From the NCBI GenBank assembly GCA_030431255.1, contig JAUIJL010000006.1, forward strand, positions 155,850 to 219,849: a stretch of DNA of 64,000 nucleotides. The letters are read 5' to 3'. This DNA comes from Thermoanaerobaculia bacterium (GTDB lineage: Bacteria > Acidobacteriota > Thermoanaerobaculia > Multivoradales > J023). The notes under the pieces are model-generated. The model ran no database searches. It saw only the letters and a program-made list of their open reading frames with translations, and was not told the origin of the DNA. This document shows positions 13,979 to 64,000 of the stretch, one piece after another (positions within the stretch are counted from its first letter, which is position 1; each line of letters begins with the position of its first letter). The position numbers and the translations under genes were made by a program.

Positions 13979-14046
13979 GGTCCGTTCGATTGAGCCCTTT
14001 CGGTCGGGCCCGTTCTTTCAGCTTTTCTAGATTCCAAGGAGCACCT

Positions 14047-15930: not shown

Positions 15931-16040
15931 GGAGTCGCCGTGGGCATCGTATTGCGGCCGATGCTCCGTTTTCTGTTCTTGTGCCGATGTTTCCTGTGCG
16001 GTCACGCTGGATCCTTCCCATATCGCCCTGGACAACCGGA

Positions 16041-16868
16041 TCAGCCGTCGGCGACCTTTTGGTATCGCGCTTTGGTGCCGGCCCAGTACACCCATTTCGG
16101 CGGAAGCAGCCAAGCGATTCGTTCCATCCACATCTGAGCCCGATCCGACGCGGTCATATGCCCCATCCAATGGAGCCGTTTGGTCAGCAGCGTCGCCTCC
16201 AGGGTCCGACGGATTTTTTGGGCTTTGACCCCTTGCTCATGTAGACGATAGCGCACCTGGGCCGACTCCAGGTTGGCAAAGTGAGCATTGGCGTGGGCCA
16301 TGCGGCTCCAAAGCTCGTAGTCCTCCGCCGGCTCACCAGGATACCGATACCCACCCAGTTGCAGCGCTAGAGACTTGCGAAAGACCACGCTCGGATGGGA
16401 AATGGGATTGTGGCTGGCCAGAGCTCTGACGATATCCCGATGGGATTCCGGGAATTGACGGAAACCCAACAGCCGGCTGTGGTGGTCGATGACCTCGATT
16501 TGGGTGCCGAGCACATCGAGATCGGGATCTTGCTCAAGGCGCTTCTTTTGCTCCGCCAGACGCTCCGGCAGGGCGATGTCGTCCGCGTCCATGCGCGCAA
16601 TCCAGGGGGCACGGGCGATCCTCAGCCCGCGGTTGAGCTGTCCCACCAAAGACGACCGACTCTCCAGCCGCAGCCATCGGATGCGAGGGTCCTGAACACC
16701 CTCCATGAGATCTTCGGCCGACGACCCCGGGCTCGGATCCTCGACCACAAGGAGCTCAAAATCCCCGAATGTCTGACCCAAGATGCTGTCCAAGGCTTCC
16801 TTGAAAATCCTCGGATCCGGTCGATAGACCGGCATCAAAACGGAGAAATACGGGGTGGTTTCGTGCAT
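16041..16868 (-). CDS. Family 2 glycosyltransferase (soluble GT-A)
   Basis: FSVLMPVYRPDPRIFKEALDSILGQTFGDFELLVVEDPS...WIARMDADDIALPERL carries the GT2 DxD/DAD signature. Confidence 0.75.
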   Translation of the reverse strand: MHETTPYFSVLMPVYRPDPRIFKEALDSILGQTFGDFELLVVEDPSPGSSAEDLMEGVQDPRIRWLRLESRSSLVGQLNRGLRIARAPWIARMDADDIALPERLAEQKKRLEQDPDLDVLGTQIEVIDHHSRLLGFRQFPESHRDIVRALASHNPISHPSVVFRKSLALQLGGYRYPGEPAEDYELWSRMAHANAHFANLESAQVRYRLHEQGVKAQKIRRTLEATLLTKRLHWMGHMTASDRAQMWMERIAWLLPPKWVYWAGTKARYQKVADG

Positions 16869-17950
16869 CAGCTTTCCGTGGAGCCCGGCGACATGGAACC
16901 GTCGGTTTCAGCAGCCGTCCGTTCTACAGTGTCGGGCGGCGCGGTCCGGCTCAGGTCCGTGGGATCCGAACGTAACATGTGGACCGCGGCACCTACACAG
17001 GCGTAGAAAAGACTCAGGCTGAAAATGGTCAACGACAAGGCCACCGCCCGAGACGGGGAGATGCCTTGGGCCCCGAGAAGGGTGACGTAGACCCCCTCGC
17101 GCACCCCGAGACCGCTGACCGTGATCGGCAAGGCGATGGCCAAGTAGGTCGCGGGCATGAGATAGCAGAAGTGGATCCACTCCACCTGCAATCCGAGACT
17201 GCGGGAAACCCAGAAACAACCCACGATGTTGAGCCCCAAAGCCAACGCCTGGCAGACCACGAGGGCGATCAGCGGCCCGGCTCCCATCCGGCGCAAAGCT
17301 CCCACGGCCTCCTGGAGCTGGCGTCCCAGGGATTCTCGCCGGGTCGGGGTCAATAAGAAAGGCGACACGGCGACGACGATCATCACCGCGGCGGCGATCC
17401 ACGGCCACAGGCCGGCCAAACGCCCAAAAAGCCGGCCGAAATCCAGCTCCACCGCCGCCGGCAGGGTGACGGCCAAAGTACCGAGCACCATCATCAAAGC
17501 CACCGCCCGCTGGGCCGCCACCCCGAGGCCGACGTGGATCCAGCGTCGGGTACGGCGTCCGAGGTCGATCACCTTGAACACGTCGGCCCCCAGGCTGCTG
17601 GGCAGAAAACTGCCGACAAAGAGGGCTTCGAAGTGGGTGGCGGCGATTTGACCCCGCCGCACCTCGACCTTGAGGGCGGTCAAGCTGATGCGCAAACCCT
17701 CCGCCAGCGACAGATGCGCCAGGCCGAAAAGCGCGGCCGCGGGTAGAAACCACCGCCAAGAAATGCCGGTCCAGGCGGTCCAAATTTGCTTCGGATCCGC
17801 GTAGGTGAGAATCAGGGCCAAGAGCACCCATCCCACCACCCAGCGCCACCACCTGGCTATCCCCGAAGCCCGGGGGCTTTCTGAAGCCAGGGTGGTTTCT
17901 GAAGCCAGGGTGGTTCCCGAATCCGGCGGCCCAGCATGCTCGGATTTCAC
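16868..17950 (-). CDS. Flippase-like / lysylphosphatidylglycerol-synthase-TM-domain family membrane protein
   Basis: About 8 TM helices with an architecture like the flippase-like domain (TIGR00374 type) usually paired with GT2 polyprenyl-P glycosyltransferases. Start and stop overlap neighbours by 1-4 nt. N-terminus has an 18-bp tandem duplication (TTLASETTLASES). Confidence 0.5.
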   Translation of the reverse strand: MKSEHAGPPDSGTTLASETTLASESPRASGIARWWRWVVGWVLLALILTYADPKQIWTAWTGISWRWFLPAAALFGLAHLSLAEGLRISLTALKVEVRRGQIAATHFEALFVGSFLPSSLGADVFKVIDLGRRTRRWIHVGLGVAAQRAVALMMVLGTLAVTLPAAVELDFGRLFGRLAGLWPWIAAAVMIVVAVSPFLLTPTRRESLGRQLQEAVGALRRMGAGPLIALVVCQALALGLNIVGCFWVSRSLGLQVEWIHFCYLMPATYLAIALPITVSGLGVREGVYVTLLGAQGISPSRAVALSLTIFSLSLFYACVGAAVHMLRSDPTDLSRTAPPDTVERTAAETDGSMSPGSTES

Positions 17951-19656
17951 GGGAAGGGCCTCCGTCGCACCTTGCGCCTCACCATGCCGAACGACTCCAG
18001 CTCTTGGGGGGATACCCAGAGATAGTCCCTCCCTTTGATCAGCTGTCGGACTTGTTCTCGTTTCAGCTTATTGGCGGAAACGATGATCGGCCGATCGCGG
18101 AAGTAGGGATCGTTGCGCAGCAAATCCCAGCCGTACCACGAGCCTCCGCCGTCGATCAGCACCATGTCCGTATCCCGAGTCTCCAAGAAACGGGTGGCGT
18201 CCGCAAAGGGCTGAACGAAGGCGTGGACCTGAGCCAAGCGCACGGGTACCGCCAACATCACGGCTGCCAAAAGGCCCACGGTCACAAAGGCCGTCGCCCG
18301 ACTCTGCCCGAGCGTGCTTTTCAGCTCCTTCCAGCCGTACACCGCCAACAACACCCAATTACCGAGCACCGGCATGAAGTAGCGGTATCCCCAGCCATGG
18401 CCTTGATTGAGCTTGAAAAACCAGTAGAAGACGAAGGTGAAGGCGGCGCTCAAGGCCACATCCTGGAGAAATGGGCTCATGCGCCGAGCTTTGAATAGGC
18501 CGAGCAACACCAACACGGCCACCACCGGTGCCTGCCAGCCGACGATCATGCTCAGATTCATGCCCTGATCCGCCCATTGCTGAAAACGCGGAAAACCCCA
18601 ATCGTTGGCCATGGCGTTGACCGAGATGCTGCTCCGGGACCACCGCACCCAAGCCATCCAACCGTAGAGACCGGCGCCATAGGTGGCGGCCATCAACACC
18701 GACGGGATCCACCGACGTTTCAGGACCCACCGAAAAAGAAATGGGAAAGCGAAGAGCACATGCATCACGAATTGATGCAAGCCCATGGTCAGGAAGCCGA
18801 GAATCGCCAGGCACACCCAGCTCCATCGACGATCTTCTAGGTAGAGCCACATCCAAAGCAGGTTGAACACCAAGTGGGCGCTCATGGAGTAGAACGACAT
18901 GCCGTAGACCAAATGCACGCTGGATGTCGCCAACAGGAGGGCGGCCAGCCATCCCGCCTCCTCGAGATCCGGAAACACCCGGCGAGCCACCACGGCCATC
19001 CACCACACCGCCAACCCTGCCAGGATGGGATTGAGCAGCATTTGGGGGTGAATCGCCAGGGTCGCCGCACGCATCAGGGCGTAGATCGGCAAGTAGAAAG
19101 AGACCCAATGCTGCTGCTCGGTGACCGTAACGAAGATCGGCGTGATGCCTCTCTCGAGCGGTATCCACTCTTCGGGCAGGGGAGCGGTGAGCTCGCCGTT
19201 GAGAAAAATCTGAGCCTGAAACTCGGCGCCGTATTCGTCCATGCTGAAGGGATGGCTGTGGTAGACGGTCCGGCTGCCGACCCAGCACACCGCGCAGGTC
19301 AGCAGCGCCAGACCCACCACCCAACGGGTGCCGAGGTAGAGCCCAGGCTGGGGATCGGGCTCGGACTGCCTATCTCGGTCCAACTTTCCGCGCACGAAAG
19401 CCGCGGCCACGGCGAGCATCAACACCAAGAGCGACACGAGCAAACCCCAATGCTCGTTGGTTTCGAAGAGGGCGTAGAAGATATTCAGCTTGTTACGGCT
19501 CGAGCCGAGCTTTCCGAGGCCGTAGGACCGGCTGTAGCTCCACAACCACCATCCCAGGACGTGGATCAGGGCGACCAAGATCCACGCGCTCGGCCAGGGC
19601 TTCAACCGGCGGAGCAGCGCTTTGAGGTCGATGCGGATTTCCTGGTTCAGGTTCAT
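17947..19656 (-). CDS. Polytopic integral membrane protein of unknown family (possibly another GT-C-like enzyme)
   Basis: 569 aa with at least 12 hydrophobic helices; Trp/Tyr-rich. Lies in an operon with glycosylation genes. No diagnostic motif recognised. Confidence 0.45.
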   Translation of the reverse strand: MNLNQEIRIDLKALLRRLKPWPSAWILVALIHVLGWWLWSYSRSYGLGKLGSSRNKLNIFYALFETNEHWGLLVSLLVLMLAVAAAFVRGKLDRDRQSEPDPQPGLYLGTRWVVGLALLTCAVCWVGSRTVYHSHPFSMDEYGAEFQAQIFLNGELTAPLPEEWIPLERGITPIFVTVTEQQHWVSFYLPIYALMRAATLAIHPQMLLNPILAGLAVWWMAVVARRVFPDLEEAGWLAALLLATSSVHLVYGMSFYSMSAHLVFNLLWMWLYLEDRRWSWVCLAILGFLTMGLHQFVMHVLFAFPFLFRWVLKRRWIPSVLMAATYGAGLYGWMAWVRWSRSSISVNAMANDWGFPRFQQWADQGMNLSMIVGWQAPVVAVLVLLGLFKARRMSPFLQDVALSAAFTFVFYWFFKLNQGHGWGYRYFMPVLGNWVLLAVYGWKELKSTLGQSRATAFVTVGLLAAVMLAVPVRLAQVHAFVQPFADATRFLETRDTDMVLIDGGGSWYGWDLLRNDPYFRDRPIIVSANKLKREQVRQLIKGRDYLWVSPQELESFGMVRRKVRRRPFP

Positions 19657-19674
19657 GGGTCGCGAAGCATGGAT

Positions 19675-21534
19675 CTAGTCCAAATAGCCGAGACTCTTCA
19701 GCTGCTCCAACGTCTCCTCGTCCATTTCAGCTTCCGGCTCGACCTGCCCCGTCCGCTGCCAATCCAAGGCGCCGAAGACCACCTCGGTCTTGGGCTCAGC
19801 CCCCCCGCTCGGCTGGACCTGAACATCCACACGCCAATAGCCGTCTCGAACCTCAACCTCACCGAGATCCGCGTCCGTCTCACCCGAGACATCGGTGATC
19901 ACGGTTTGCCCTCGGCTGTGGCGAATATAGATCTTCGGCCCGGCCTGATGGATGTTGAGCCGCCAGCTCGCTTGGTAGATGCCGTCCGGCACGGCGATCC
20001 TCAGGGCCAGCGGCTTACAGCTCGCTTCAGCCTCGCCGGTGAACCTTATCTTGCGTTGCCAGTCGTCGCCGGCTCCGAAATCCCAACAGGGCGGCGAAGC
20101 TCCGAGCGGGGTTTCAATCTCCCGTGCGGGAATATGCATGGCACCCACTTGCCCGTCGACTTTGCGACCGCTTTGCCGTTCGAGATAAGTCTTGATGAAT
20201 CTCTTGAATTCCCGCGGCAGCTGGGCCCCGGAGGTCCGCACGAGGCCCAACGGCTCCTTCACAGGCCCGGCGTCCGACTCAGTGAGGCGGGAGATCTCTT
20301 GCCGCTCGTTGAGCATCCACGTCTGACCTGCGTCGCGATAGCCGAATCGTACGGCACGCCATCCCGCACGGAAGGTGTAGGCCACCCATTCGCGGGTGAC
20401 GGGCTCGGAGCCCGGGCCGCCCAACAGGTTCTGGCCGTCCAGAAGGGCGCCCTCCGGGGGCTTGATATCGGTCAAACCGAGCAGGGTGGGCATCACATCA
20501 ACGGTGCCGGTGAAGCCTCGGACCACCTTGCCCTCCGGCACTCCGTGGCCGAACAACAGCAGGGGTATGCGGTGCACCGCGTCCATGCCGAAGGTCGGAA
20601 AGGTGTGCTCGAAATGGCCGCCTTCCCCCATGGCATCGCCGTGATCGGCAGTGATCACCCCCACCACCTTGGTGCCGAGCCGGCTTTCGACCGATCTCAT
20701 CAGCGCACCCACCTGGGTATCCAACCGGCGCAACGACGAGCGAGCCGCGCCCTTGAACGTTTCCACCAGGAGCGGGTCCGGGTCGGCGATGAATTTGGTG
20801 TCCTTGCGAGCCGGCTGCTTTCGCGCCCATTCCGCACGATTCCAACCCAGGGCTTCGAGGGAGAAGAGCTCGTCTTCTTCGGGTGGATTGTGGGGCGTGT
20901 GTGTGTCGAGAAAGTGGACGTAGAGGAAGATGGGCTCGCCCTCGCGATCACGATGCTCCTTCAAGACTTCCTGGGCTTTCGCCACCAGAGCCTGGGCATC
21001 GGCATAGGGCCCGGATTTCGGTTTGACGAAATGGACCTCCTGAAACGACGCTCCGAGCCGTGAGTCGGCGGAGGTCCAAGGGTGGGCGGTCACCATCACC
21101 GTGCGATAACCCGCGTCGGCCAGAAGATCGGTCAGCAGCACCAAATCGTCCTGCGGCACCTCGTCCCGGCGCCACCAAGGCTCGTCCTGCCCCGGCGGAT
21201 AGTAGAGCAAGGACGGGGCATCGTAGCGGGAGGTGAAGAGCTGGGGCACCGATTGGCGGGTGGTGTGACCATGGCTGACGTGATGGTCGAAGCGTATGCC
21301 GCCGGCCGCGAGTCGATCCATTTCCGGCGTGGTGTCGTAGGGGTGCCCGTAGGATCCAAAGAAGTCGGCCCGCGCCGCGTCGAGCATCAACATCACCAAG
21401 TGGGGTCGTTCGGGATCCGGGGGTGGTCCACAGGCCGTCGCCAACACCACGACACAAAGAAAAGCCGACAGCCGAAGGCTCCTGCCGAGCCGGCAGAACG
21501 GGGTGTGGGGCAGCCATGGGCCTCTTCGTTTCAA
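19675..21534 (-). CDS. Alkaline-phosphatase-superfamily 'sulfatase-like' lipoprotein (paralog A)
   Basis: [29 protein letters not shown]...[16 protein letters not shown] has Thr/Ser in the nucleophile region, with no C/S-x-P-x-R. Lipobox-like VVLATAC. C-terminus ends ...EQLKSLGYLD. The first-ATG ORF would overlap the upstream gene by 180 nt; a TTG near 21534 with a GGAGA SD 6 nt upstream is the proposed start. Confidence 0.65.
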   Translation of the reverse strand: MKRRGPWLPHTPFCRLGRSLRLSAFLCVVVLATACGPPPDPERPHLVMLMLDAARADFFGSYGHPYDTTPEMDRLAAGGIRFDHHVSHGHTTRQSVPQLFTSRYDAPSLLYYPPGQDEPWWRRDEVPQDDLVLLTDLLADAGYRTVMVTAHPWTSADSRLGASFQEVHFVKPKSGPYADAQALVAKAQEVLKEHRDREGEPIFLYVHFLDTHTPHNPPEEDELFSLEALGWNRAEWARKQPARKDTKFIADPDPLLVETFKGAARSSLRRLDTQVGALMRSVESRLGTKVVGVITADHGDAMGEGGHFEHTFPTFGMDAVHRIPLLLFGHGVPEGKVVRGFTGTVDVMPTLLGLTDIKPPEGALLDGQNLLGGPGSEPVTREWVAYTFRAGWRAVRFGYRDAGQTWMLNERQEISRLTESDAGPVKEPLGLVRTSGAQLPREFKRFIKTYLERQSGRKVDGQVGAMHIPAREIETPLGASPPCWDFGAGDDWQRKIRFTGEAEASCKPLALRIAVPDGIYQASWRLNIHQAGPKIYIRHSRGQTVITDVSGETDADLGEVEVRDGYWRVDVQVQPSGGAEPKTEVVFGALDWQRTGQVEPEAEMDEETLEQLKSLGYLD

Positions 21535-21556
21535 GCGGGATCTCCGTCGTTTCGGC

Positions 21557-23431
21557 TCAGTCGAGATAACCCAAGCTTCTGAGCTGCTCGATGGTTTCCG
21601 GATCGAGCTCCTCGAGCTCCTCCGGTTGCAGGCTGCCCACCCTGAACAGCCGAAGGCTTTTGAGCTCCACAGGCCCCGATCCGGAGAGCGGCTCGACCCG
21701 AATCCGGGTCCGGCCCGTCGGCGCGGGAATGACCCCAAGCTTCAGCTCATCGTCACCGACGTGCTCGGACCCCACCTCCCAAGAGGCTCCGATCTCGGGC
21801 AAGCTCACCCGCAACCGGGTATCCGGATCAAATTCGCCCACCTTCCACCGTATCTCATATTCCTCCAACGGCACCTCGACCACCGCCTCGAACGGCCGGC
21901 AGCCGGCACCGTCCAGAGCCTTGAAGCGGATCTGCTTGCGCTCGCGACGCCATTCCGGGATTTGCCAACAACCCTCGGTAGACCCCAGCTCGCCCTGAAT
22001 CTCCAGCTCGGACAGGGGCACGTTCATCGACCGGGCCATGGGCTCGAACGGTCGACCTTTTAGCCGGGCTCGAATCCCCTCCACCAGCCGACGAAAGGGC
22101 TCCGGCGTTTGGTCGGCCACGTCTCGCCATGTGCCGAGCTCTTGGAAATCAAAGCCACTGTCGTTGCGAAAAAGACTCCCGTCCTCGGAAAGCACCATCG
22201 AGGTGTTTTCGTCGCGGAAGCCCATGCGCGCCCGCACCCAGCCCATTCGGTGGACATAGGGCACCAAGCGACCGGATCTCGCCCGGGGATCTGCCATCAG
22301 CCGGACGGTCGAGCGACCGTCCACGGCGATGCCACCGGGGATCTCGAGACCCAGCAGATCGAGCACGGTGGGCAGCACGTCCACGGTTCCGGTCAAGCTT
22401 TCGACCACCTTGCCGGACGGCACGCCGTGACCCGACAGGATCAGCGGGATGTGATGCACCGCATCGGTACCGAAGGTGGGCAGGATGTGCTCGAAATACC
22501 CTTGCTCGCCGATGGCGTCGCCGTGATCCGAGGTGATCACGTGCAAGGTCGGGGCGTCGAGGGTGTCTTCCAGCCAGCTCTTGAATCGTCCCAGCTCCCG
22601 GTCGGTATAGGCCAGCGACGAGCGAATGGCGCCGTGATACGCCTCTACCAGCTTCGGATCGGGATCTTTGAGGACCTTTCGATTGCGGATGCCCGGCTGC
22701 TTCTTGCGCCAATCCTCGAAGGTCCAACCGAGCTCGTCGAGGGAGAAGAATGTATCGTTCGGCGGCCGCGGCTCGTGGGGGGTGTGGGTGTCCAACAGGT
22801 GAATGTATAGGAAGAGCGGTCGGTCCAAGCCGTCGGCGATGTAGTCCCCCAGGGCCTTGCGGGCGTGTTTGAACACCTGCTCGGCCGAAGCGTAATAAGA
22901 CCGCCGCGGCACCTCGTAGTAGCTCTCGAATCCGCGGCTGAACCTGGACTCTTCGGTGGTCCAGGGGTGGGTGGTCACGATTTGGGTGGCATAACCCTGC
23001 TCACTCAGGAAAGGCGGCAGGAAGAGCATGTCTCGGGTCGCGACCTCATCCCGATCCCACCAGGGCATGTCCCACCCCGGCGGAAAAATCACCAACGGCG
23101 GAGCGTCGAGCCGTGAGGTGAAGAGCTGGGGCACCGAGCGCGCGGTAATGTGGGAATGGCTGTAGTGTCGCGCGAATCGTGTCCCTTGAGCGGCCATCCG
23201 GTCCATCTCGGGGGTGGTCTCGAAGGGGTGGCCGTAGCTGCTGAAAAAGTCGGCGCGGGCGGCATCGAGCAGATAGACGACCACCACCGGATGTGACGAC
23301 TTCTTCGGTCCGCCGAGCCCACAGCCCAGCAAGCTCAAGACACCGAAGCACACGAAATACACACGGCTTCGGCGGAGAGCGCGTCGAATCACCGGCCACC
23401 GGGAGCCCTTGAGCCGAGCCCCGTCGGTCAC
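21557..23431 (-). CDS. Alkaline-phosphatase-superfamily 'sulfatase-like' lipoprotein (paralog B)
   Basis: Signal peptide with lipobox LLGC; [29 protein letters not shown]...[17 protein letters not shown]-terminus ends ...[10 protein letters not shown]. About 45% identical to paralog A over its length by eye. Confidence 0.7.
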
Positions 23432-25005
23432 GCGCTCTTTTCCTCGTGGTATTCCTCTTCAGTATTGACGTCCCACAAATTGCTCTTGTCGGTTCGTCCC
23501 TCGAGAATATTCTCCACCGCCATCATGGCGGTGAGCATGGAGTGATCCTGATTGTTGTAGCGGTGCATGCCGTTTCGACCCACCAAGAAGAGATTCTCGA
23601 AGCCGTCGACGAAACCCCGCAGCTCGTCGAAGCGGTCGTAGCTGCCGAAGTAGGCGGGGTAGGTCTTGGGCATTTTGATCACCACCGCGTCGCTGACCCT
23701 ATCCGCCCGGATAATCTCGATCCGTTCCAGCTCGTCTTTCGCCAAAGCCACCAGGTCGTCGTCGCTTTTCTTCCACAGCTCGTCGGTGTCGTTGCAGAAG
23801 TACTCGAGGCCGATCCAGACCTTGGAGGAGTCGGCCACCATGTAGGGGCTCCAATTGTTGAAGATCTGCATCCGGCCCACCAACACGTCGGGTTCTTGGA
23901 TGTAGATCCAATTGTCTTGGATCAACTGGGTCCCGGCTTTGTCCTCGTGGATCTCCAGATCGTCCAGGAGCAGGCCGACGGTGAGGAAATCGCGGTAGAT
24001 CAGGCCATCGGAGATCTCCTGAAATTCGGCCGGTGCCGCCGGCTCCAAACCGCGAACGAGCTCTTTCATCGGCATGGTGGAGAAGAAATAGTCCCCTTCG
24101 AGCACCTGCCGCTCGCCGGTCTGGGTGTCGACCCACTTCACCGCCACCACCCGATCCCCTTCGGTCACGATGCCGTCCACCCGGGCGAAGGTGCGAATCT
24201 CGCCACCTTGCTCCACCACCCGCCGGGCCACTTCTTCCCACATCTGTCCAGGGCCGAGCTTGGGGTAGAGGAAGCGCTCGATCAGCGAGGTCTCCATGTC
24301 TTTTTGGGCGACGTCACTCCCGGATTTGGGCAACAGGGATTTGAAGAAATGCTTGAGCGCCGAGATGATCGACAGACCTTTGATCCGCTGGGCTCCCCAT
24401 TCGGCGCTGATCTGATCGCAGGCGGTGCCCCAGACTTTTTCGGTGTAGGACTTGAAGAACGTCAGATAGAGCTCTTTGCCGAAGCGGTTGATCAGGAATT
24501 GCTCCAGGCTCTTCTCGTTGCGGATCGGCAAGGCCAAGCTTTTCAGATAGCTCGCACCGATTTTGATCGAGCGCAAGAGACCGAGGTTTGCCAGCGTCTG
24601 CAAGCTCAAGCTGATGGGGTAGTCGAAGAATTTGCGCAAATAGTAGATCCGCGACCGCCGGTTGCGCACCAACATGACCAGATCTTCTTGCTCTGGATCC
24701 ACCACCTTGTCACCGGATACCTCGGTGGTCCGACGGTGATAGGTGATTTGCGCCTCCCCCTCGGACGAGGCTTCCAAGGGCATGATGTCCAGCCACCAAT
24801 TCATCACACGATCGGACTTCGAGAAGAAGCGGTGGCCACCGATGTCGATGCGGTTGCCGTTGTGCTCAACGGTGCGGGCGATGCCGCCCATGTAAGAGCT
24901 CATCTCCAGCACAATCGGCTGGATGTCCGACTGCTTCAATAGCTCGTAGGCAGCGGTCAGCCCCGCGGGGCCCGCGCCGATAATGATCGCCTTGCGGTCG
25001 GACAT
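23428..25005 (-). CDS. FAD-dependent oxidoreductase, long UDP-galactopyranose-mutase-like (Glf family) flavoenzyme
   Basis: N-terminal Rossmann [18 protein letters not shown]...GGHRFF. Central [24 protein letters not shown] matches the Glf motif FIGKELYEAFFKGYTxKQWG. 525 aa; stop overlaps the downstream start (ATGA). Confidence 0.65.
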
Positions 25006-25153
25006 GGGGTGAGGTCGACCTCCTTAAATAAAAACGGATGTGTTTCCGAGGCCGTCGGATCTTACCAGCCAAGTCGATGGTCGACAGCCCAGTGATCGTC
25101 GACAGCCCAGTGATCGTCGACACCGTTCGTGCGGAGCGGTTACCATCGATCCC

Positions 25154-27196
25154 ATGCTCGCTTTGCCGAACCAGCTCTCGCCCCCTGCTCGACTGGCGAT
25201 CCTGCTCTTATGCGCGGTGCTCGGCGGCGCCCTCGGCGGGCTCGCGGTCTTCGTAGCCGACCAGCTGCGTCTGTGGATTTTTGACGGCTATCTCGTCGCC
25301 GCCGGCTCGTACCTACCGCACTATTGGCGACCGGGCGCTACGTTGGGGCTGGTTTCCTTCCTGGTGACCGCCGGCTTCGACCGCTTCAAGCCGCCGGCTC
25401 ATGCAAGAACGATCCCCCGGATAGCCCTAGACGGAGCTTTGATCGCCTGCGCCGGCTTGTGGGTATTTGCATTCATCCGTCATCACCTGGAGGTCTTCGG
25501 CCCGGTCGCGGACGGCTATTCCCACGAGCCGGCTTGGAGGCCGGCCCTGCTGTGCCTGGCGTTCGCCCTTCCCGCCACGGCCCTAGCGATCGGCCTGCGC
25601 AAGCTTTCTCACCTTTCCTGGCCCCCGGCCCTTTGGCTGGCGTTTCTACCCTTCGCCATCAGCGTGACGTTTCGGGCCCATGGCCGACGTGATGCGGGGG
25701 CCGCGTGGTGGGCCCTGGTGGTCGCGGCAGTCGTGCTCTCAGTGATCGCTCGCCTCGGACGTGGGAATGCCCGTCGGCTTTTCGCGACCGTCACGGCGAC
25801 CCTGATGGCGGCATCCATCGCCGGTGCGTGGTCTCAACGTCCGACCTCGGCACTGGCACCGGCACCGACCTCGAATCCCCCCAACCTGCTGCTCTTGGTG
25901 GTCGACACCCTGAGGTTCGACATCTTCCAGCAGGTGGTGAACGAAACCCCGGAAGGACGCCGCTTTGCCGAGGCCATCAACGGCTCGGCTTGGTTCAGTC
26001 ACACCTTGGCGACGGGACCATGGACCGCGCCGTCCATGGGTTCTGTGCTCACAGGTCTCTATCCCGAAGAGCACGGCTTCATCTCAGCCTCTGACCAGAG
26101 CAGCCACGCGGTCCGTCCCCTGACCGACGCCGCGCCCACCCTGGCGGAAAGGCTCCAAGAGCAAGGCTTTTGGACCGAAGCCGTGATCAGCAATCCACTG
26201 TTGAAGGAATCCAGCGGCATCTCTAGGGGTTTTCACAGATATCGAATTTACGCCGGACCTACGGGTCGGCTCACGGTGTTGGGCACTTTGGAACGATTGG
26301 GTTGGATTGCCGCCGACTACTACCAAAACGCCGACGTCGTGGCCGGCGCCTTTGAAAAGCGGCTGCCGAAAGCCTTGAACAAAGGGCGGCCGTTCTTCTT
26401 CTGGGTGCACTTCATGGATCCCCATGCGCCCCTGAAGAGGCACAGCTTGCCGTGGTTGAAACCGGGGAAGCGCAAGCTGCCGAGCCCGACTGTTTTGCTC
26501 TATCGGGACGAGGTGCGCTTTGTGCTCCGGGAGATCGCCGTCCTGCTGGAGCGGCTCAAAAAACAGGGCCTGCTCGACAACACCACCCTCTTATTTGTGT
26601 CCGACCACGGCGAGATGCTCTCCATGGATCAACGGTCGTCACCACCCCTGGCCCGTACAAAAGGCCACGGTCACGCTTTGCATCAAGAGCTCATGCACGT
26701 GCCGCTGGTGATCCGTCCCGCCGGAGGTCTGCCACAGAATCGTCGGATCGAAGCCCAGGCCAGTCTGGTGGACCTCCACGACACGATTTTGGATCTAGCG
26801 GAGCTCGACAACCCGCGGATCGGATTTGATCGAAAAAGCCTGGCACCTTGGCTGAGCCCAACCGCTCCAGAGGGGCCCGACGTCGCTCGGACCTGGACCT
26901 ACGGCGGCTCGGTGCAAATCGGCGACCCCCAGCACGCCTTCGTCGTCGGCAGCTCAAAGCTCATTCTGCACGACGGACCCCGGCGGCCCGAGCTCTACGA
27001 CCTCGAAACCGACCGCCGGGAGCTTCGGAATCTGGCCCAGGAACAACCGGAGCAGCTCAACCAGCTGCGGCAAAAGCTGTCGTTGATCCGCTCCCAGCTG
27101 CGTCCCGTGGAAGAGAGCGGTCCCTTGGTTTTCGACGACGAAACCCGCCGCCAACTGGAGGCCCTGGGTTATCTAGGCGGCAGCGACGACAACTGA
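25154..27196 (+). CDS. Membrane-anchored alkaline-phosphatase-superfamily 'sulfatase-like' enzyme (paralog C; EptA/LtaS-like topology)
   Basis: N-terminal ~5 TM helices, then LLLVVDTLRFDIF...ATGPWTAPSMGSVLTG and DHGEMLS. C-terminus ...RRQLEALGYLGGSDDN shares its tail with paralogs A/B. Start ATG 25154 (MLALPNQ) was chosen over the ORF-track 25040. Confidence 0.7.
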   Translation: MLALPNQLSPPARLAILLLCAVLGGALGGLAVFVADQLRLWIFDGYLVAAGSYLPHYWRPGATLGLVSFLVTAGFDRFKPPAHARTIPRIALDGALIACAGLWVFAFIRHHLEVFGPVADGYSHEPAWRPALLCLAFALPATALAIGLRKLSHLSWPPALWLAFLPFAISVTFRAHGRRDAGAAWWALVVAAVVLSVIARLGRGNARRLFATVTATLMAASIAGAWSQRPTSALAPAPTSNPPNLLLLVVDTLRFDIFQQVVNETPEGRRFAEAINGSAWFSHTLATGPWTAPSMGSVLTGLYPEEHGFISASDQSSHAVRPLTDAAPTLAERLQEQGFWTEAVISNPLLKESSGISRGFHRYRIYAGPTGRLTVLGTLERLGWIAADYYQNADVVAGAFEKRLPKALNKGRPFFFWVHFMDPHAPLKRHSLPWLKPGKRKLPSPTVLLYRDEVRFVLREIAVLLERLKKQGLLDNTTLLFVSDHGEMLSMDQRSSPPLARTKGHGHALHQELMHVPLVIRPAGGLPQNRRIEAQASLVDLHDTILDLAELDNPRIGFDRKSLAPWLSPTAPEGPDVARTWTYGGSVQIGDPQHAFVVGSSKLILHDGPRRPELYDLETDRRELRNLAQEQPEQLNQLRQKLSLIRSQLRPVEESGPLVFDDETRRQLEALGYLGGSDDN

Positions 27197-27219
27197 TAGA
27201 TCGCCTCATCCACGAAACG

Positions 27220-27320
27220 CCTGGCACCTCTCACGAAACGCCTGGCACCGCGATGAAGCGCCTGGCACCGCGAAGTGCCCGGCACCGCAAAATCTGCACC
27301 GCAAAATCTGCAGCACCGAG
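27220..27320 (+). repeat. Cluster of 4-5 direct copies of a GAAA[CT]GCCTGGCACC-core repeat (REP-like) in a convergent intergenic gap
   Basis: cacgaaacgcctggcacc x2, then gaagcgcctggcacc, gtgcccggcacc, and a degenerate atctgcaccgcaaaatctgcagcacc. All in the same orientation. Confidence 0.7.
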
Positions 27321-27355: not shown

Positions 27356-29419
27356 TCACGGGGCGGAACAATATTGAGCGAGCTGGTAATACCCCTCTTG
27401 CCAGTTGATAGGAGTCTCGGCGCACGCCGGCTGCTGAAGGGAAGCACAGGCCTCAACCATGGGATAAGCGCAGACGTTGTCGACGGTCGTATCCCAAGCA
27501 GGACACGGACAGTCGAGTCGGCCGCCCATCGCCGTCAACTGAGACGAGTCGAGAACGCAGCTATCGGTCGCACACGCCTTGTATGCGTCCCACGCCAGAC
27601 GTCGCTCAAGGTCAACATCGATGAGCCCCATGCGCCCGCCACCGTTCACGGAATCCTGCACGTAGTCGCTCCAAGCGAACCAGAAGGCGTGGGCGACTTC
27701 GTCCTCGCTGTATTGGCCGAATAGCGTATAAGCAGCCGACAGGTAGTCGGCCTGCACCGCCGCCGGATCGCCGAAACTCTGCAGGTCGACGAGTGGCACA
27801 CCAAACTCAGTAATCCACAGCGGCACCGGCCGGGACATCAGATTGAGCACGTCGTCGATCGCGCTCTCCATGGTCTGCCCCTGGGGATACGCAGGCACCC
27901 CGGCGAGTCTTTTCCCGTAAGGGTGTACTGCAACGCCGTCGTAGGCCAAGGTTGCGTCGGTTTCGAGCTCGAAGAGGATCTCGTCGAAATAGTCCAACCA
28001 ATTCTGCCCCGCCGGCCCGCTGAGAATTACCGGTTTCGAGCTGACCGTACGCAAAGCCGCAGAGCCCTGGCGGATCAAATCCGGGAAAGCGTTCGACGGG
28101 ACGTCGGTGAGATCGGGTTCGTTCCAGAGCTCGTAAGCATCGACGTAGTCATCGTAGGAATTAGCAAATGACAGCAGATTGTCGGCGAATTGATCTTGGT
28201 ACGCGTACCAAAAGCAATTGCCGGGAATCTGAAAGCGATCCGTCTCACATAAGGTATCGACGAAGGATTGCGAATTGAAGACGACGATCAGATTGATGTT
28301 GGCTTGATTCAACGCTTCGCCGAGGTTGCGGACCATCTCCCAGTTGCCCGCATAAACGATCGTCCGCACCCAGCGCACACCGAGCGCCTGCAGCTGCGCT
28401 ACGGTCGGCGCCGAAACTGGCGGACCGTTAGCGTTGATGGCCAGCCCAAAGCAATTCAGGTTACGTGGACCACCATCGGCGCATGGCGAGCCGCCGATCG
28501 CCTGCCAACCATCGGGATCGCAGCGATACTGCTGGTTGTCGCCGCCGCACACCGTGTAGCCACAATAGGTCGAGTCGGGGTTGATCGCGTTACCCCAGTA
28601 GTCCGAGCCGTTGGTGCAGCGGCAACTCGGCGAAGGGGTCGCGCACGGCGAGCCGCCGCGCGACTGCCAGCCGGAGGTCGTGCACTCGTAGATCTGATTG
28701 TCGGCTCCGCAGACGTCGAGCCCGCAATAGGTCGACGCGGGATCGATTGCATGACCCCAATAGTCGGTTCCACCAGTGCATGTGCAGCTTGTCGGAGAGC
28801 CCGCGCAGGGGCTGCCGCCGCGCGACGCCCAACCTGTCGAAGTGCACTCATAGTTCTGGTTGTCGCCGCCACACACCGTGTAGCCGCAGTACGTTGAGGC
28901 TGGATTGATCGCGTTACCCCAATAATCCGAGCCGCCAGAGCATGAGCAGGACGGTGAAGGCGGCGGTGTGGAGCCGCAGCCACTCGGAAAGGAGTCTTGA
29001 TAGTCGTAGTAGCCGCGCACCCAATCCGCGTCGCTATAAGACGCGTCGCCGTTCGGATCGCAATAACCACCGGGCCAAGTCATGCCACAGCCGGGGGTCG
29101 ATGGCGCATGGTGGCAGAAATTGTCGAAACCGGCCGCCGAGCTGCACGGGCAGCTCTCTGATGCGTTGCAGCCATTCGGATACTGGCCCCGATATTCGTT
29201 GTAGCCACGCACCCAATCAGCGTCGGTGTAAGACGCGTCACCGTTCGGGTCACAATAGCCGCCGGGCCAGGTCATGCTGCAGCCGGCAGTCGAGGGCGCA
29301 TGATGGCAGAAATTGTCAAAACCGGCCGCTGAGCTACACGGACAAACTGCGCCGGCCGTCGCGGGCAGCAGGAGGCAGGTGAAGGCAAGCACGGCGAGAG
29401 CTAAGATAAATCGATGCAT
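27356..29419 (-). CDS. Secreted GH5-family glycoside hydrolase with N-terminal tandem Cys-rich modules
   Basis: Signal peptide. 2 x ~70-aa module (CPCSSAAGFDNFCHHAPST.GC.MTWPGGYCDPNGDASY.DADWVRGY). 3 x ~50-aa module (C.C.GG.DYWG.AI.P.STYCG..VCG.DNQ.Y.C...GW...GGSPCA). Catalytic domain has ELWNEPDL (acid/base NEP) and LWITEFGVP (nucleophile TEFG), the GH5 hallmarks. Cys-rich C-tail. Confidence 0.7.
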   Translation of the reverse strand: MHRFILALAVLAFTCLLLPATAGAVCPCSSAAGFDNFCHHAPSTAGCSMTWPGGYCDPNGDASYTDADWVRGYNEYRGQYPNGCNASESCPCSSAAGFDNFCHHAPSTPGCGMTWPGGYCDPNGDASYSDADWVRGYYDYQDSFPSGCGSTPPPSPSCSCSGGSDYWGNAINPASTYCGYTVCGGDNQNYECTSTGWASRGGSPCAGSPTSCTCTGGTDYWGHAIDPASTYCGLDVCGADNQIYECTTSGWQSRGGSPCATPSPSCRCTNGSDYWGNAINPDSTYCGYTVCGGDNQQYRCDPDGWQAIGGSPCADGGPRNLNCFGLAINANGPPVSAPTVAQLQALGVRWVRTIVYAGNWEMVRNLGEALNQANINLIVVFNSQSFVDTLCETDRFQIPGNCFWYAYQDQFADNLLSFANSYDDYVDAYELWNEPDLTDVPSNAFPDLIRQGSAALRTVSSKPVILSGPAGQNWLDYFDEILFELETDATLAYDGVAVHPYGKRLAGVPAYPQGQTMESAIDDVLNLMSRPVPLWITEFGVPLVDLQSFGDPAAVQADYLSAAYTLFGQYSEDEVAHAFWFAWSDYVQDSVNGGGRMGLIDVDLERRLAWDAYKACATDSCVLDSSQLTAMGGRLDCPCPAWDTTVDNVCAYPMVEACASLQQPACAETPINWQEGYYQLAQYCSAP
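28460..29350 (-). repeat. Intragenic tandem DNA repeats encoding the Cys-rich modules of the GH5 protein
   Basis: Repeated protein modules listed above. Spurious antisense ORFs in this region translate to repetitive peptides. Confidence 0.6.
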
Positions 29420-29682
29420 TGTATTTCCTTGAGAACAGAGTAGACAGGTTTTCGGTAAGCGTACGCGTAAAAAGCATGTTTATTGACCAGTAATATCATC
29501 AGATGACCGCGAATAGATCAGCGACCTAGCTCAATCTGCACATTGTACTTAAAGAGAGACATATTTACAATTTTCGAAATAACGCCCTCAGTGAGTCCAG
29601 CAGACACGCTATGGGAGGCTCCGTCCAGGAGCCCGCCCCGCCGGCCCATAACGGGAAACCTGCGCAATACCCGCCGTAACAA

Positions 29683-29752
29683 AGTACCCGGCACCCACGA
29701 TGAAGGGCACCACGATGAAGTGCCTGGCACCGCGAAATGCCCGGCACCGCGA
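29683..29752 (+). repeat. GCCTGGCACC-core repeat cluster (3-4 copies) upstream of the transposase-like gene
   Basis: gtacccggcacc, gaagtgcctggcaccgcga, aatgcccggcaccgcga; same orientation as the other clusters. Confidence 0.65.
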
Positions 29753-29896: not shown

Positions 29897-30877
29897 ATGG
29901 GACGCGAGCCAAGATACGTTCCCCCCAACAGTCTGCAACACGTTACCGACGTCACTTTTCAGAATCGTCCACTTTTACGCCCGTCGAAGGAGGTCAACGA
30001 ACGCATTCTCGGCGTGATTGGGCGAGCGCAAAAGAAATACGAGATGACCATTTGCGGGATAGTCGTTTTATCCACCCACTGGCATTTTCTCCTTCGGCCC
30101 AAGGACGCCTTCCACCTGTCGTCCTTCATGTGCTTCGTTAAAACCAATGTTTCCAAGGAGATCGGCATACATCTTCTCGGCTGGAGAGGTTCCCTCTTCG
30201 GTGGTCGATACCACTCGTCGACTGTCTCTGACGAGGAGATCGCTCAAGTTGGCGTGCTTCGCTATCTCCTCGCTCATGGCCCAAAGGAGCTCTTGGTGGA
30301 TTCCGTCGCGGAGTGGCCCGGAGCCCATAGCGCCGTCCCCACCGTCAAGGGCCAATGCATGGTCGGTGAGTGGATCGATCGCACCTCGTCCTACAGCGCC
30401 CGATCCCGACGGGGCGGATTGATCGACCTGAACGCTTTTACGATCGAGGAGAAGGTTGTGATCTCGCCTCTCCCTTGCTGGGAGCACCTACCCGAGTCCC
30501 AGTGGCGCGGGGCGGTTGGGGCTTTGGTCGACGACATCAACCGTGAGGCTGCTGTGATCCGACGGGATCTCAAGAAAACCAGCCTGGGTGTCACCCGAAT
30601 CTTGGCCAACGATCCGGAGAAACGTCCGAATCACGTGGAAAAGTCTCCGAAACCTAGATTCCATGCCCGAGATCCGGCCGTCTATCGAGCAATGCTCAGC
30701 ATTTGGCGTGAGGTGATCCAAAGCTTTCGAGAGGCCTCGGAGAAGCTTCGCTCCGGGATCCGAAGCGTGGCATTCCCAGAGGGGACTTTCCCGCCTGGGT
30801 TACCGTTCGTACCCTTCAGCGAAGAGACCCTCTTGGGAACTGGGTTGGTCCTGAACCGAGGTCAACCGACCTGCTGA
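29897..30877 (+). CDS. IS200-like HuH/Y1 tyrosine transposase-like protein with ~150-aa C-terminal extension (RAYT-like)
   Basis: MTICGIVVLSTHWHFLL (HuH motif H-x-H + hydrophobics), KTNVSKEI, and WRGSLFGGRYHSSTV (catalytic Tyr region) are colinear with IS200 TnpA (DHVHLL ... WSRGYFVSTVG). The gene and its flanks are visibly AT-richer than the surrounding genome. Confidence 0.55.
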   Translation: MGREPRYVPPNSLQHVTDVTFQNRPLLRPSKEVNERILGVIGRAQKKYEMTICGIVVLSTHWHFLLRPKDAFHLSSFMCFVKTNVSKEIGIHLLGWRGSLFGGRYHSSTVSDEEIAQVGVLRYLLAHGPKELLVDSVAEWPGAHSAVPTVKGQCMVGEWIDRTSSYSARSRRGGLIDLNAFTIEEKVVISPLPCWEHLPESQWRGAVGALVDDINREAAVIRRDLKKTSLGVTRILANDPEKRPNHVEKSPKPRFHARDPAVYRAMLSIWREVIQSFREASEKLRSGIRSVAFPEGTFPPGLPFVPFSEETLLGTGLVLNRGQPTC

Positions 30878-31159
30878 AGCCAGGGTGTCGTCAGCTCTGC
30901 CGGAAGAGCCTCGAACCGGCCCCATTCCTCTTTGATTTCCGGGATCTCGTCCGACGATCTGTCGGACTAGGGAGAGGTACGCCTTGGAGCAGCACTCGCG
31001 ACCCCGACTCGCAGGACGAACGAGCCATCAGCACAGATTGGGCCATTCACCCGTAGATATGCCTGGCACCCTTTCGAGGCTGAGCGCACTTGTAGTGCCG
31101 ACTTTTTTGCTAAGTCATTGAAAACATTAGACCGGGCATCGTGAGCTGCGGAAGTTGGG

Positions 31160-31200
31160 CTAGGCACCGCCGTCAGCGAAATGCCCGGCACCTCTACGAA
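31160..31200 (+). repeat. GCCTGGCACC-core repeat copies (2) downstream of the transposase-like gene; a further single copy lies at ~31055-31071
   Basis: ctaggcaccgcc...gaaatgcccggcacctctacgaa; gatatgcctggcaccc at 31055. Confidence 0.55.
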
Positions 31201-31203
31201 AAG

Positions 31204-32367
31204 CTAAGCCTCCCGCAGCAGACCCGTGATCTCGCGAGTCGACACCGCGATCGCCGGTGCCAGGCCTCCCAGCACACCGGTGAGCACCGCCAAACCCACT
31301 CCCAAAAGCAGGACCGGTGCCGTCAAAGTCAGCTCAAAGGTGATCTCACTAAAAGTGATGAAATTCGTCGTGCCGGCCGAAATCCCATTGAGCGGCAACG
31401 ACAACACCACCCCCAGCAAACCACCGAAGAAACCCAGAATGGCCGACTCCAGCAAAACCGCCGTGAACGTGTGGCTGCGACGAAAGCCGATCGCCCGCAA
31501 GGTCCCGAGCTCCCGGCTGCGGTTGGAGATTTGGGAATACATGGTGTTGGCGGCGGCAAAGCACGCGCCAAAGCCCATGAGCACCGCCATCAGGGTTCCC
31601 AATATCTCGAACATCGCGGTGTTGGCGCTGGTCTGCTCTTCGTAATACTGCACCTCGGGCAACACCTTCGTCCGCCATCGCTGATCCCCTTCGATGGTGG
31701 CCACCAGCTGATCGGCGCTTTCCTTCGACGAGGTGCGCAACCGGATGGAGGACACCGCGTTCGACCGATTGAACGCGTTGCCGATGTCTTCGATGGCCCC
31801 CAGCACCTCCGACTCAGCGCCCCCGCCCCCGGCGGTAAACACGCCGACGACCTGAAAATCGATTCGCCCAAAGCGGACACTCTGGCCGATGGACAGATCC
31901 GGGAATCGCCCGGCCAGGTTGTCGCCGACGATGATCTCCCCCTTGCCGGGCTCGAAATCACGCCCTTCGACGATCTCGAACCCGGGCCGCACGTCTCGGG
32001 TCGTCGGCATGATGCCGCGCACCGTGACGTTGGACTCACTGCCGTCGGTGCGAGAAAAGATTTGCAGCACCACCAGCTCACCGGAGGCCAGGGAGCCCGA
32101 CGGTCCCTGCTCGACCCCCGGCAACGCCGCGATATCGCGGAACACATCCATGGAGAAGCCGCTTTCGGTCTCGCTACGAGCACCGTCGCGCAGGACGATC
32201 AAATTGTCGGGGTCGCCGGTGGCGGAGAAGGCTTTTTCGAGACCCGCGGCCAGGGAGAACACCCCGATGAAAACGATCACCACAAAGGCGATCGACAACA
32301 TGGTCATGAAGGTCGTGGCCTTGCGCACGAAGAGGCTTCGCAGGTTGTATTTGAATGGAATCTTCAT
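31204..32367 (-). CDS. ABC transporter permease, FtsX/MacB-like (4 TM with large periplasmic domain)
   Basis: N-terminal TM (TFMTMLSIAFVVIVFIGVF), a ~220-aa periplasmic domain, and three C-terminal TM helices with the typical FtsX C-terminus ...GLAPAIAVSTREITGLLREA. Confidence 0.8.
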   Translation of the reverse strand: MKIPFKYNLRSLFVRKATTFMTMLSIAFVVIVFIGVFSLAAGLEKAFSATGDPDNLIVLRDGARSETESGFSMDVFRDIAALPGVEQGPSGSLASGELVVLQIFSRTDGSESNVTVRGIMPTTRDVRPGFEIVEGRDFEPGKGEIIVGDNLAGRFPDLSIGQSVRFGRIDFQVVGVFTAGGGGAESEVLGAIEDIGNAFNRSNAVSSIRLRTSSKESADQLVATIEGDQRWRTKVLPEVQYYEEQTSANTAMFEILGTLMAVLMGFGACFAAANTMYSQISNRSRELGTLRAIGFRRSHTFTAVLLESAILGFFGGLLGVVLSLPLNGISAGTTNFITFSEITFELTLTAPVLLLGVGLAVLTGVLGGLAPAIAVSTREITGLLREA

Positions 32368-58857: not shown

Positions 58858-59210
58858 GGGGGCGCACCGGTTTCGACGGGTAACAGGCAGCTCCGTAGTC
58901 GCGTGCCGGATCCATCCGTTAATTGGAACAAAAACACAAAAGCCAACGATAATTTGGCCCTCGCGGCAGCTTGACCGCGCGTCTTGATGACGAGCCCTGA
59001 TCTACGGCTCCCATCAAGGCGCTACTTAAAGTAGATCAATGGGACGCGGTTGGCTTCGGGCCACGTCCCGGATACTTACCGAAGCTGGCCGAGGGGCCGG
59101 GTTGCTTTCCGCCCAAACTCCTCGGCGAGACAAAAACCGGAAAGCTACGCACGTAGAAGCTGCGGATCTGAGTTGCTCGGACGTGGGTTCGATTCCCACC
59201 GCCTCCACCA
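58858..59210 (+). ncRNA. ssrA: tmRNA (ssrA), standard one-piece; tag reading frame GCC AAC GAT AAT TTG GCC CTC GCG GCA GCT TGA = (A)NDNLALAAA
   Basis: 5' GGGGGCGCACCGGUUUCGACGGG (canonical tmRNA 5' end) pairs with the 3' acceptor strand CGCCUCC + A + CCA, including a G3:U wobble. T-arm GGGUUCGAUUCCCAC. The tag ORF ends in ALAAA and is followed by a stop. Confidence 0.85.
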
Positions 59211-59254: not shown

Positions 59255-59445
59255 TTGCCCGGCACCATTTCGAGAAACGCCTGGCACCTCATACTCGGCC
59301 TCTCTGAAGCCATTTCGAGAAATGCCTGGCACCTCATATTCGGCCTCTCTGAAAGATGCCTGGCACCGCTGAGATGCCATTTCGAGAAATGCCTGGCACC
59401 TCATATTTTGCCTCTCTGAAAAATGCCTGGCACCGCTGAGAAGCT
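59255..59445 (+). repeat. Cluster of ~6 GCCTGGCACC-core repeats, including three ~45-bp units (catttcgagaaa[ct]gcctggcacctcata[ct]tcggcctctctgaa), immediately 3' of ssrA
   Basis: Read directly from sequence; same orientation and same core as the clusters at 27.2, 29.7 and 31.1-31.2 kb. Confidence 0.75.
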
Positions 59446-63991: not shown

Positions 63992-64000
63992 GGCGGCGGC

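Follow-up and report, generated by a model that had tools for sequence, protein, structure and literature searches.

Architecture of the hydrolase gene and its product

The window analyzed here is a 64,000-nt stretch of contig JAUIJL010000006.1 (positions 155,850 to 219,849 of the forward strand; Thermoanaerobaculia bacterium, assembly GCA_030431255.1), and our subject is a gene on its reverse strand that encodes a modular hydrolase. The 687-residue open reading frame (ORF) at 27356-29419 is a real and intact gene; a Shine-Dalgarno sequence, AAGGAA, lies 6 nt 5′ of its ATG, and public assemblies hold a protein identical to its product (P0001). The enzyme itself is of an ordinary and known class, a secreted glycanase of glycoside hydrolase (GH) clan A (GH-A), and its novelty resides in two families of small accessory modules, termed A and B.

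The product begins with MHRFILALAVLAFTCLLLPATAGA, a typical Sec signal peptide whose n, h, and c regions were assigned by eye. The mature protein contains 41 Cys residues, six in each module (two A, three B, and a C-terminal A-like module, A′) plus five scattered in the catalytic region, and short Pro/Ser/Thr linkers connect the modules. The internal repeats lie far above chance, with phmmer E values of 4e-34 for A1 against A2 and about 1e-23 for B1 against B2 and B3. The features of the gene, all on the (-) strand, are as follows.

27356-29419, (-): whole gene, encoding signal peptide–A–A–B–B–B–clan GH-A catalytic domain–A′ (from the ORF and its repeat anatomy)
29348-29419, (-): Sec signal peptide, residues 1-24, predicted cleavage after AGA (read from the sequence)
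29168-29344, (-): module A copy 1, residues 26-84, six Cys, loop DPNGDASYTDAD followed by a helix (family profile, independent E value (i-E) 4e-31)
28976-29152, (-): module A copy 2, residues 90-148 (repeat family D2)
28805-28948, (-): module B copy 1, residues 158-205, six Cys, DYWG and GW positions
28643-28786, (-): module B copy 2, residues 212-259
28481-28624, (-): module B copy 3, residues 266-313
27575-28462, (-): predicted clan GH-A catalytic domain, PslG/GH39-like, residues ~320-615 (alignment of 13 homologues, profile search of the PDB)
28118-28120, (-): codon of E434 in WNEPD, predicted general acid/base (invariant in 13 homologues)
27806-27808, (-): codon of E538 in WITEFG, predicted nucleophile (invariant in 13 homologues)
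27368-27514, (-): A′, degenerate A-like six-Cys C-terminal module, residues 636-684 (weak match to the A profile)

An earlier note on this DNA had described a secreted protein in which Cys-rich tandem modules precede a catalytic domain, a description that agrees with the signal peptide and the repeats found here, and the aromatic DYWG and GW positions that it pointed out are present in module B. Its count of two plus three modules and its six Cys per B module were correct; the eight Cys that it assigned to each A module were not, since six were found. The modules are also smaller than the ~70 and ~50 residues that it gave: A measures 59 residues and recurs with a period of 64, and B measures 48 residues with a period of 54. 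The third, degenerate A-like module at the C-terminus had been overlooked. No additional copies of A, B, or the catalytic domain occur elsewhere in the 64-kb window. A promoter and terminator scan yielded nothing above chance, and an Rfam scan found no regulatory RNA near the gene.

Relationship of the catalytic domain to PslG and GH39

The NEP (433-435) and TEFG (537-540) motifs are present as previously read, and both Glu residues are invariant among 13 homologues. An alignment of these 13 catalytic domains showed further invariant positions, namely G, I, P, W-V-R, N-E (433-434), and H-x-Y (499, 501), as well as W-x-x-E-x-G (E538) and F-x-F-x-W-x-D; N433, E434, E538, R352, H499, Y501, and W583 were invariant or nearly so. 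These positions include the hallmark residues of clan GH-A, and the two Glu residues expected of a retaining member, the acid/base in NEP and the nucleophile, are both conserved.

When the single sequence was scanned against Pfam, PF11790 (Glyco_hydro_cc) was the sole model to pass its cut-off (26.5 bits; cut-off, 21), with a partial match covering profile positions 72-217 of 237. PF00150 (GH5 Cellulase) gave no match at E<=1, and an NCBIfam scan of the protein gave none. A family profile was needed for comparison with solved structures, as a phmmer search of the PDB with the whole protein returned spurious antibody matches alone (E>0.03). The profile, built from the alignment of the 13 homologous domains and searched against all PDB sequences, matched PslG (GH39) with an E value of 9.5e-20 (74 bits), followed by 5jvk, an uncharacterized protein (2.4e-14, 56.5 bits), GH39 beta-xylosidases (3e-11 to 4e-5, 46 to 26 bits), Glyco_hydro_cc chains (2.8e-5, 26.7 bits), and the first GH5 chain, 3amc (0.0075, 18.7 bits). 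PF11790 is equated here with the GH128 beta-1,3-glucanases, PDB 6uaq and related entries.

The PslG match spans profile positions 25-296, and this alignment of ~270 positions to the PslG barrel suggests that the domain would adopt a (beta/alpha)8 barrel fold. In the alignment, the WNEP Glu pairs with residue 139 of the PslG chain and the TEFG Glu with residue 250, which, with an offset of 26, are Glu165 and Glu276. Glu165 is the acid/base of PslG and Glu276 its nucleophile, the latter having been covalently trapped by an activity-based probe (PMC11912335). In a wider profile search, the distant relatives of the catalytic family gave a mixture of PF11790, PF00150, and PF01229 (GH39) hits; several of them carry the JGI name PslG and one is named a GH5 cellulase. 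On these profile matches, the family sits in a poorly classified gray zone between GH39, GH128/PF11790, and GH5.

The earlier note had labeled the enzyme GH5, and we rejected this label because PF00150 did not match and the best GH5 structure scored far below PslG (0.0075 versus 9.5e-20). At clan level its assignment was sound: the protein falls in the same glycoside hydrolase clan as GH5, and both catalytic Glu residues proved intact on alignment. That the protein is nevertheless a GH5 cellulase or mannanase whose modules are conventional carbohydrate-binding or lectin domains is, in our judgment, highly unlikely. The NEP/TEFG motifs and the R/N/E/H/Y/E/W hallmarks are common to GH5 and the whole clan, and some distant relatives do carry precomputed PF00150 hits, including the one with the GH5 cellulase name; against this stand the two search results just given and the failure of the modules to match any Pfam family, carbohydrate-binding module (CBM) families included, or any PDB sequence. 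Judged by its sequence, the catalytic domain is a retaining clan GH-A glycanase nearest PslG/GH39 and not demonstrably GH5, the retaining mechanism being what clan membership would predict.

Sequence and predicted structure of modules A, A′, and B

Isolated modules (65 A and 24 B sequences) were scanned one by one against Pfam, and neither A nor B matched any family there, CBM families included. Neither module matched an NCBIfam model, and profile searches of PDB sequences with both gave no match. The modules likewise match no known non-carbohydrate domain in these databases, as far as the searched copies go, and a literature search on them found nothing relevant. The A and B families are thus absent from the copies of Pfam-A, NCBIfam, and the PDB that were searched. 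They are also unrelated to each other (hhalign probability, 1%).

AlphaFold2 models generated from the family alignments had high predicted local distance difference test (pLDDT) scores. The module A model (pLDDT 90.6) has little regular structure apart from a single helix at module positions 45-55, and a Foldseek search found no match for it among PDB folds. The module B model (pLDDT 93.0) is a three-stranded antiparallel sheet, for which finger-like matches in the PDB were obtained at noise level alone.

The consensus of module A is CxCxxGxDNFCxYxPxTxGCxMTxPGGYCDPNGDGSxxDADWVRGYxxYxxxC, in which the stretch DPNGDGS(F/Y)xDAD has the form of a canonical 12-residue EF-hand/dockerin loop. An EF-hand-type loop was found in 70 of 107 module A copies with a strict pattern and in 85 of 107 with a relaxed one; in the model, the helix follows immediately on loop position 12. 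Because the loop fits this pattern and is followed by a helix at that position, module A probably binds Ca2+, as far as a motif can indicate. The Pfam models Dockerin_1 and EF-hand_1 do not match isolated module A; hits to them in the A-containing proteins P0155, P0142, and P0049 most likely derive from loops outside the module and were not used.

Module A′ retains a CxC..DNxC..C..C..W..GY..C skeleton and is without the GGYCDPNGDG loop. Its match to the A profile is weak (i-E 0.005-0.02); against the same profile, the corresponding tails of the homologues P0002 and P0003 gave i-E values of 2e-4 and 9e-4, respectively. A whole-library HMMER search scored P0001 as containing three module A stretches.

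Distribution and partner domains of the modules

Module A is rare: an exhaustive profile search of 1.84 billion cluster representatives recovered 198 proteins, mostly from Polyangia. A one-genome-per-species scan, which relied on a single peptide pattern, found 53 loci in 48 genomes, or about one per genome. Thirty-eight of them are labeled Myxococcota or bear older names (Nannocystis, Enhygromyxa salina, Polyangiaceae, and others), nine are Gammaproteobacteria, including the isolate Tahibacter aquaticus, and a few are other metagenome-assembled genomes. The closest taxon-labeled homologues of the hydrolase are from Myxococcota (Polyangiales, Kofleriaceae, Haliangium), and a scan of genome contigs with the single whole hydrolase protein as the query found no relative.

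Of 163 A-containing proteins of at least 250 residues, 117 have module A at the C-terminus, 32 at the N-terminus, and 14 in an internal position; 34 carry two or three copies. In the genome loci, the ORFs stop right after the last Cys of a C-terminal module A. The partner domains found in 82 non-redundant A proteins are PA14 (12), Glyco_hydro_cc (11), CARDB (10), LGFP (6), trypsin (5), subtilase, M23, N_BRCA1_IG, and CBM60 (3 each), PKD (2), and astacin and 3D (1 each). Module B, whose distribution is known from 20 proteins, also occurs on a GH25 muramidase (P0050), and in Hoch_2257 of Haliangium ochraceum an N-terminal B is combined with a C-terminal A. In Polyangia-type Myxococcota, A and B are attached to peptidases (trypsin-like, subtilisin-like, astacin, and M23), to a GH25 muramidase, and to glycanases other than the hydrolase. 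Since the modules occur in tandem copies, at either end of proteins, next to Pro/Ser/Thr linkers, and on many unrelated secreted hydrolases, we favor a targeting or binding role for them.

These positions also bear on a different reading, in which module A would be a dockerin-like docking, surface-retention, or sorting module for a protein partner or the cell surface. Its Ca-loop and helix motif resembles half a dockerin, it sits at the extreme C-terminus in most proteins with the ORF ending after the last Cys, and it occurs on many unrelated enzymes. However, the loop is single rather than part of a duplicated segment and comes with three disulfides, and the model has no PDB fold match, dockerin included; we know of no cohesin-like partner. 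A sorting signal would fit tandem copies and N-terminal positions, as in the hydrolase, poorly. The number of loci per genome, with the reservation that it comes from a single-peptide-pattern scan, is far below that of dockerins or of type IX secretion system C-terminal domains in their hosts, which argues against a general sorting or docking system. We consider this reading unlikely.

Some further architectures were observed. A second protein family, with P0033/P0113 (Hoch_2257), P0020, P0027, P0029, and P0034, has the order B, a domain of ~300 residues, and A; the middle domain carries GPNEP and TE(I/T)G motifs, is not recognized by Pfam, and is probably another unclassified clan GH-A barrel. 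In Nannocystaceae (L017, Enhygromyxa salina; L045, Nannocystis pusilla; L014; L041), module A often ends small repeat proteins with many CGDGxC...C..C..DCG.C repeats, which have no Pfam match at E<=0.001. In the gammaproteobacterial and Anaerolineales loci L036 (Tahibacter aquaticus), L005, and L025, a protein terminated by module A consists of a Pfam-unrecognized NEP/TEF region, PA14, an unassigned stretch, and the module; these loci suggest cross-phylum spread of module A or of whole genes.

Divergence of the module copies and variation in module number

The two A copies of the hydrolase share 83% of their nucleotides and 83% of their residues, and nucleotide identity among the B copies is 72% (B1/B2), 74% (B1/B3), and 67% (B2/B3). 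Third codon positions of the copies are 50-66% identical (34-50% differ), and the longest in-register identical run between them in the window is 17 nt. Tandem Repeats Finder did not report the in-gene module repeats, which fits this divergence. Contrary to what the earlier note had stated, the modules are therefore not near-identical at the DNA level, and the recent duplication that it derived from this is not supported by the same values.

The gene of a sister strain (P0108, locus L057) is 98.45% identical at the nucleotide level, with 32 substitutions and 8 amino acid changes, and equals the window gene exactly in length and module count. Module number does vary across the family, P0002 being A-B-B-B-GH-A′ and P0003 being A-B-B-GH-A′. 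The recombination-driven length variation expected by the earlier note was not seen in the sister strain; the one difference of this kind lies in another lineage, where P0003 (L058, 4467-6104) and the near-identical P0109 differ by a clean 52-residue gap corresponding to one B module. B1 and B2 in that lineage have a 26-nt identical run in common. This difference reflects either unequal recombination or short-read assembly collapse, the latter being possible for P0109 because its source is a 2.3-kb short-read contig. The surviving B module of the pair resembles a B1/B2 chimera.

Flanking repeats and the origin of the gene

The hydrolase gene, which appears monocistronic, converges on a sulfatase-family gene (25040-27196, +) and points away from a Y1_Tnp gene (29897-30877, +; PF01797, E 1e-7) of the IS200-like, REP-associated tyrosine transposase (RAYT) type. 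Arrays resembling repetitive extragenic palindromic (REP) elements were found at the following positions.

27210-27290, (+): REP-like array 3′ of the hydrolase gene and outside it, four copies of the core GCCYGGCACC, period 17-21 nt
29680-29750, (+): REP-like array 5′ of the hydrolase gene, between the hydrolase and RAYT-type genes
31061-31265: further REP-like array, after the transposase gene
59257-59434: further REP-like array, beside the transfer-messenger RNA (tmRNA) gene, 30 kb away

The sequence GCC[T/C]GGCACC occurs 19 times in the window against 0.74 expected. Clusters of GCCTGGCACC flank the hydrolase gene on both sides, as the earlier note had it; the window contains 12 exact copies, where chance would give 0.25, and some repeat copies form the palindrome GTGCC-N-GGCAC. 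Dispersed arrays together with a Y1 gene are the pattern of REP elements with their RAYT, and the Y1 gene and the repeat arrays look like such a RAYT/REP system; the flanking repeats are not a signature of cargo acquisition. A literature search on RAYTs in Myxococcota found nothing relevant. The downstream array has four cores in 159 bp here versus six cores in 304 bp in the sister strain. Since the core number differs while the module count does not, the plastic DNA is the intergenic array and not the gene.

The earlier note had taken the repeats as a hint of horizontal acquisition. The composition of the gene (GC 0.607; GC at third codon positions (GC3) 0.714; codon-usage distance 0.110) falls within the range of its neighbors (GC3 0.67-0.82; codon-usage distance 0.069-0.134). 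A recent horizontal arrival of the gene as cargo of a repeat-flanked islet, with modules that are recent, recombination-prone duplications, could draw on the arrays on both sides, the adjoining Y1 transposase gene, the fact that a few Gammaproteobacteria, among them the isolate Tahibacter aquaticus, have module A, and the one-module difference between P0003 and P0109. All of the compositional values are nonetheless like those of the neighbors, and the same arrays recur 30 kb away beside the tmRNA gene, as expected of dispersed REPs. The third-position differences among the copies speak against recent duplication, as does the constant module number in a strain that has diverged by 1.5%, and the P0109 difference is possibly a collapsed assembly repeat. 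We regard such an arrival as very improbable.

At the far end of the window, the tmRNA gene (58858-59210, +; Rfam, 157 bits) is followed by its REP-like array. The GC content then rises abruptly from ~0.61 to ~0.72 (59496-64000) across a 1362-residue ORF (59903-63991, -) that reaches nearly to the window end; two readings of this high-GC stretch are possible, an island at the tmRNA site or simply a giant surface protein of unusual composition.

The adjacent putative envelope modification locus

The locus at 12200-27196, which adjoins the hydrolase gene, contains two glycosyltransferase family 2 (GT2) genes, PMT_2-like, LPG_synthase_TM, methyltransferase, and amine oxidase genes, and three sulfatase-family genes. 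No recognizable polymerase or export genes were found in this 12-27 kb locus, and it looks like an envelope lipid/glycan modification locus rather than an exopolysaccharide locus. The three sulfatase-family proteins are membrane-anchored and LtaS/EptA-like.

The earlier note had raised the idea that the hydrolase processes the glycan built by this locus. Put more fully, it would be a housekeeping enzyme of the PslG type, trimming or releasing glycan made by the producer itself, as would suit the identity of its closest solved relative and the adjoining genes, whose synteny is kept in the sister strain. That strain is just 1.5% diverged, however, and its synteny tells little. The genes of five homologues (P0002, P0003, P0006, P0010, and P0026) each have a different and unrelated neighborhood, in every case free of glycan-synthesis genes, which makes processing of the adjacent-locus glycan unlikely. 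In addition, the hydrolase gene and the nearest sulfatase-family gene point toward each other with a REP array between them, and the hydrolase gene is apparently monocistronic; recognizable polymerase and export genes are missing from the locus; and the presence of the same modules on proteases and peptidoglycan hydrolases is a better fit to extracellular attack enzymes. Taken together, we rate a housekeeping function of this kind as quite improbable.

Proposed function and significance

We consider it on balance probable that the hydrolase is a stand-alone, Sec-exported, modular retaining beta-glycanase with new targeting modules. In the mechanism that we propose, E434 (WNEPD) would act as the acid/base and E538 (WITEFG) as the nucleophile of a double-displacement reaction. 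The PslG-like GH-A domain is flanked by six three-disulfide modules of two families. Module A, a probable Ca2+ binder, is predicted to be built around a D-x-N-x-D-[G/A]-x-Y/F-x-D-x-D loop that leads into a helix, and module B would be a small three-stranded beta "finger" with exposed aromatics. Through multivalency, the modules may hold the enzyme on an extracellular polymer, the most likely ligand being a polysaccharide from the envelope or matrix of prey or competitor cells, or the matrix of the producer itself. A carbohydrate-binding role of A and B is plausible, and we infer both the extracellular location of the hydrolase and ligand binding by its modules.

Several observations weigh against this proposal. 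The single sequence scored 23.1 bits against PF01229, under the 26-bit cut-off. Judged by sequence and length, the post-barrel tail of ~70 residues, which is the six-Cys A′ module, is too short for the GH39 beta-sandwich. Neither A nor B has a CBM match by sequence or fold in Pfam or the PDB, and the window's own A1 and A2 have Ala at loop position 6, where Gly is usual. A Sec signal in a diderm bacterium, finally, shows export to the periplasm only.

A broader and more tentative proposal, which we hold to be possible rather than probable, is that A and B are two new disulfide-braced targeting families, A being Ca2+-dependent and of a fold not represented in the PDB, that aim a whole range of secreted lytic enzymes (proteases, peptidoglycan hydrolases, and glycanases) at a shared ligand of the prey envelope, the biofilm matrix, or the predator's own matrix, largely in Polyangia-type myxobacteria and a few Gammaproteobacteria. 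They would then amount to CBM-like or "prey-targeting" families.

Both modules are compact, confidently modeled, and absent from the searched databases, one of them without a detectable structural relative in the PDB, and in predatory myxobacteria they recur on proteases, on cell-wall hydrolases of the M23 and GH25 types, and on glycanases. Should they turn out to be binding modules, they would define new CBM-type families, offer a handle on how such bacteria retain or aim secreted lytic enzymes, and provide small Ca2+/disulfide-stabilized tags for biotechnology. The combination of a PslG-like domain with multivalent targeting modules makes the hydrolase a candidate matrix-degrading (anti-biofilm) enzyme, and the correction from GH5 to PslG/GH39-like alters the substrates of first choice.

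Comparison with known systems

Among solved proteins, the one nearest to the catalytic domain is PslG of Pseudomonas aeruginosa (CAZy GH39; PDB 5bx9 and 4zn2). Both catalytic Glu residues are in register (NEP; T/S-E-x-G), from which a shared retaining mechanism of clan GH-A would be expected. PslG is encoded in the psl operon, is periplasmic, acts on the cell's own Psl, and has a C-terminal beta-sandwich. Unlike the hydrolase, which is stand-alone with six disulfide-rich modules and a post-barrel tail of ~70 residues, PslG is without Cys-rich modules, and whereas psl-type operon enzymes are linked to polysaccharide synthesis and export genes, the five homologues of the hydrolase listed above are without such conserved linkage. 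PF11790 (Glyco_hydro_cc) passed its cut-off and is found in 11 of 82 module A proteins; its solved chains (2.8e-5) scored far more weakly than PslG. With GH5, the domain shares the clan, the NEP acid/base, the Glu nucleophile, and the hallmark residues.

For the modules, near parallels are small Ca2+-dependent or disulfide-rich CBMs such as CBM60, CBM36, CBM1, and the hevein-type CBM18. A and B resemble them in size (50-60 residues), in their Pro/Ser/Thr-linked tandem arrangement beside a glycoside hydrolase, and in their conserved aromatics. Module A further resembles the small Ca2+-dependent CBMs in its probable Ca2+ site, and CBM60 co-occurs in 3 of 82 A proteins. Its likeness to type I dockerins and EF-hands lies in the pattern D-x-[DN]-x-[DN]-G-x-hydrophobic-x-x-x-[DE] followed by a helix, seen in 70 of 107 copies; it differs from dockerins in having one loop and not two, no entering helix, three disulfides, and no structural match. 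The fibronectin type I "finger," CCP/sushi, and beta-microseminoprotein folds are also among the closest known systems.

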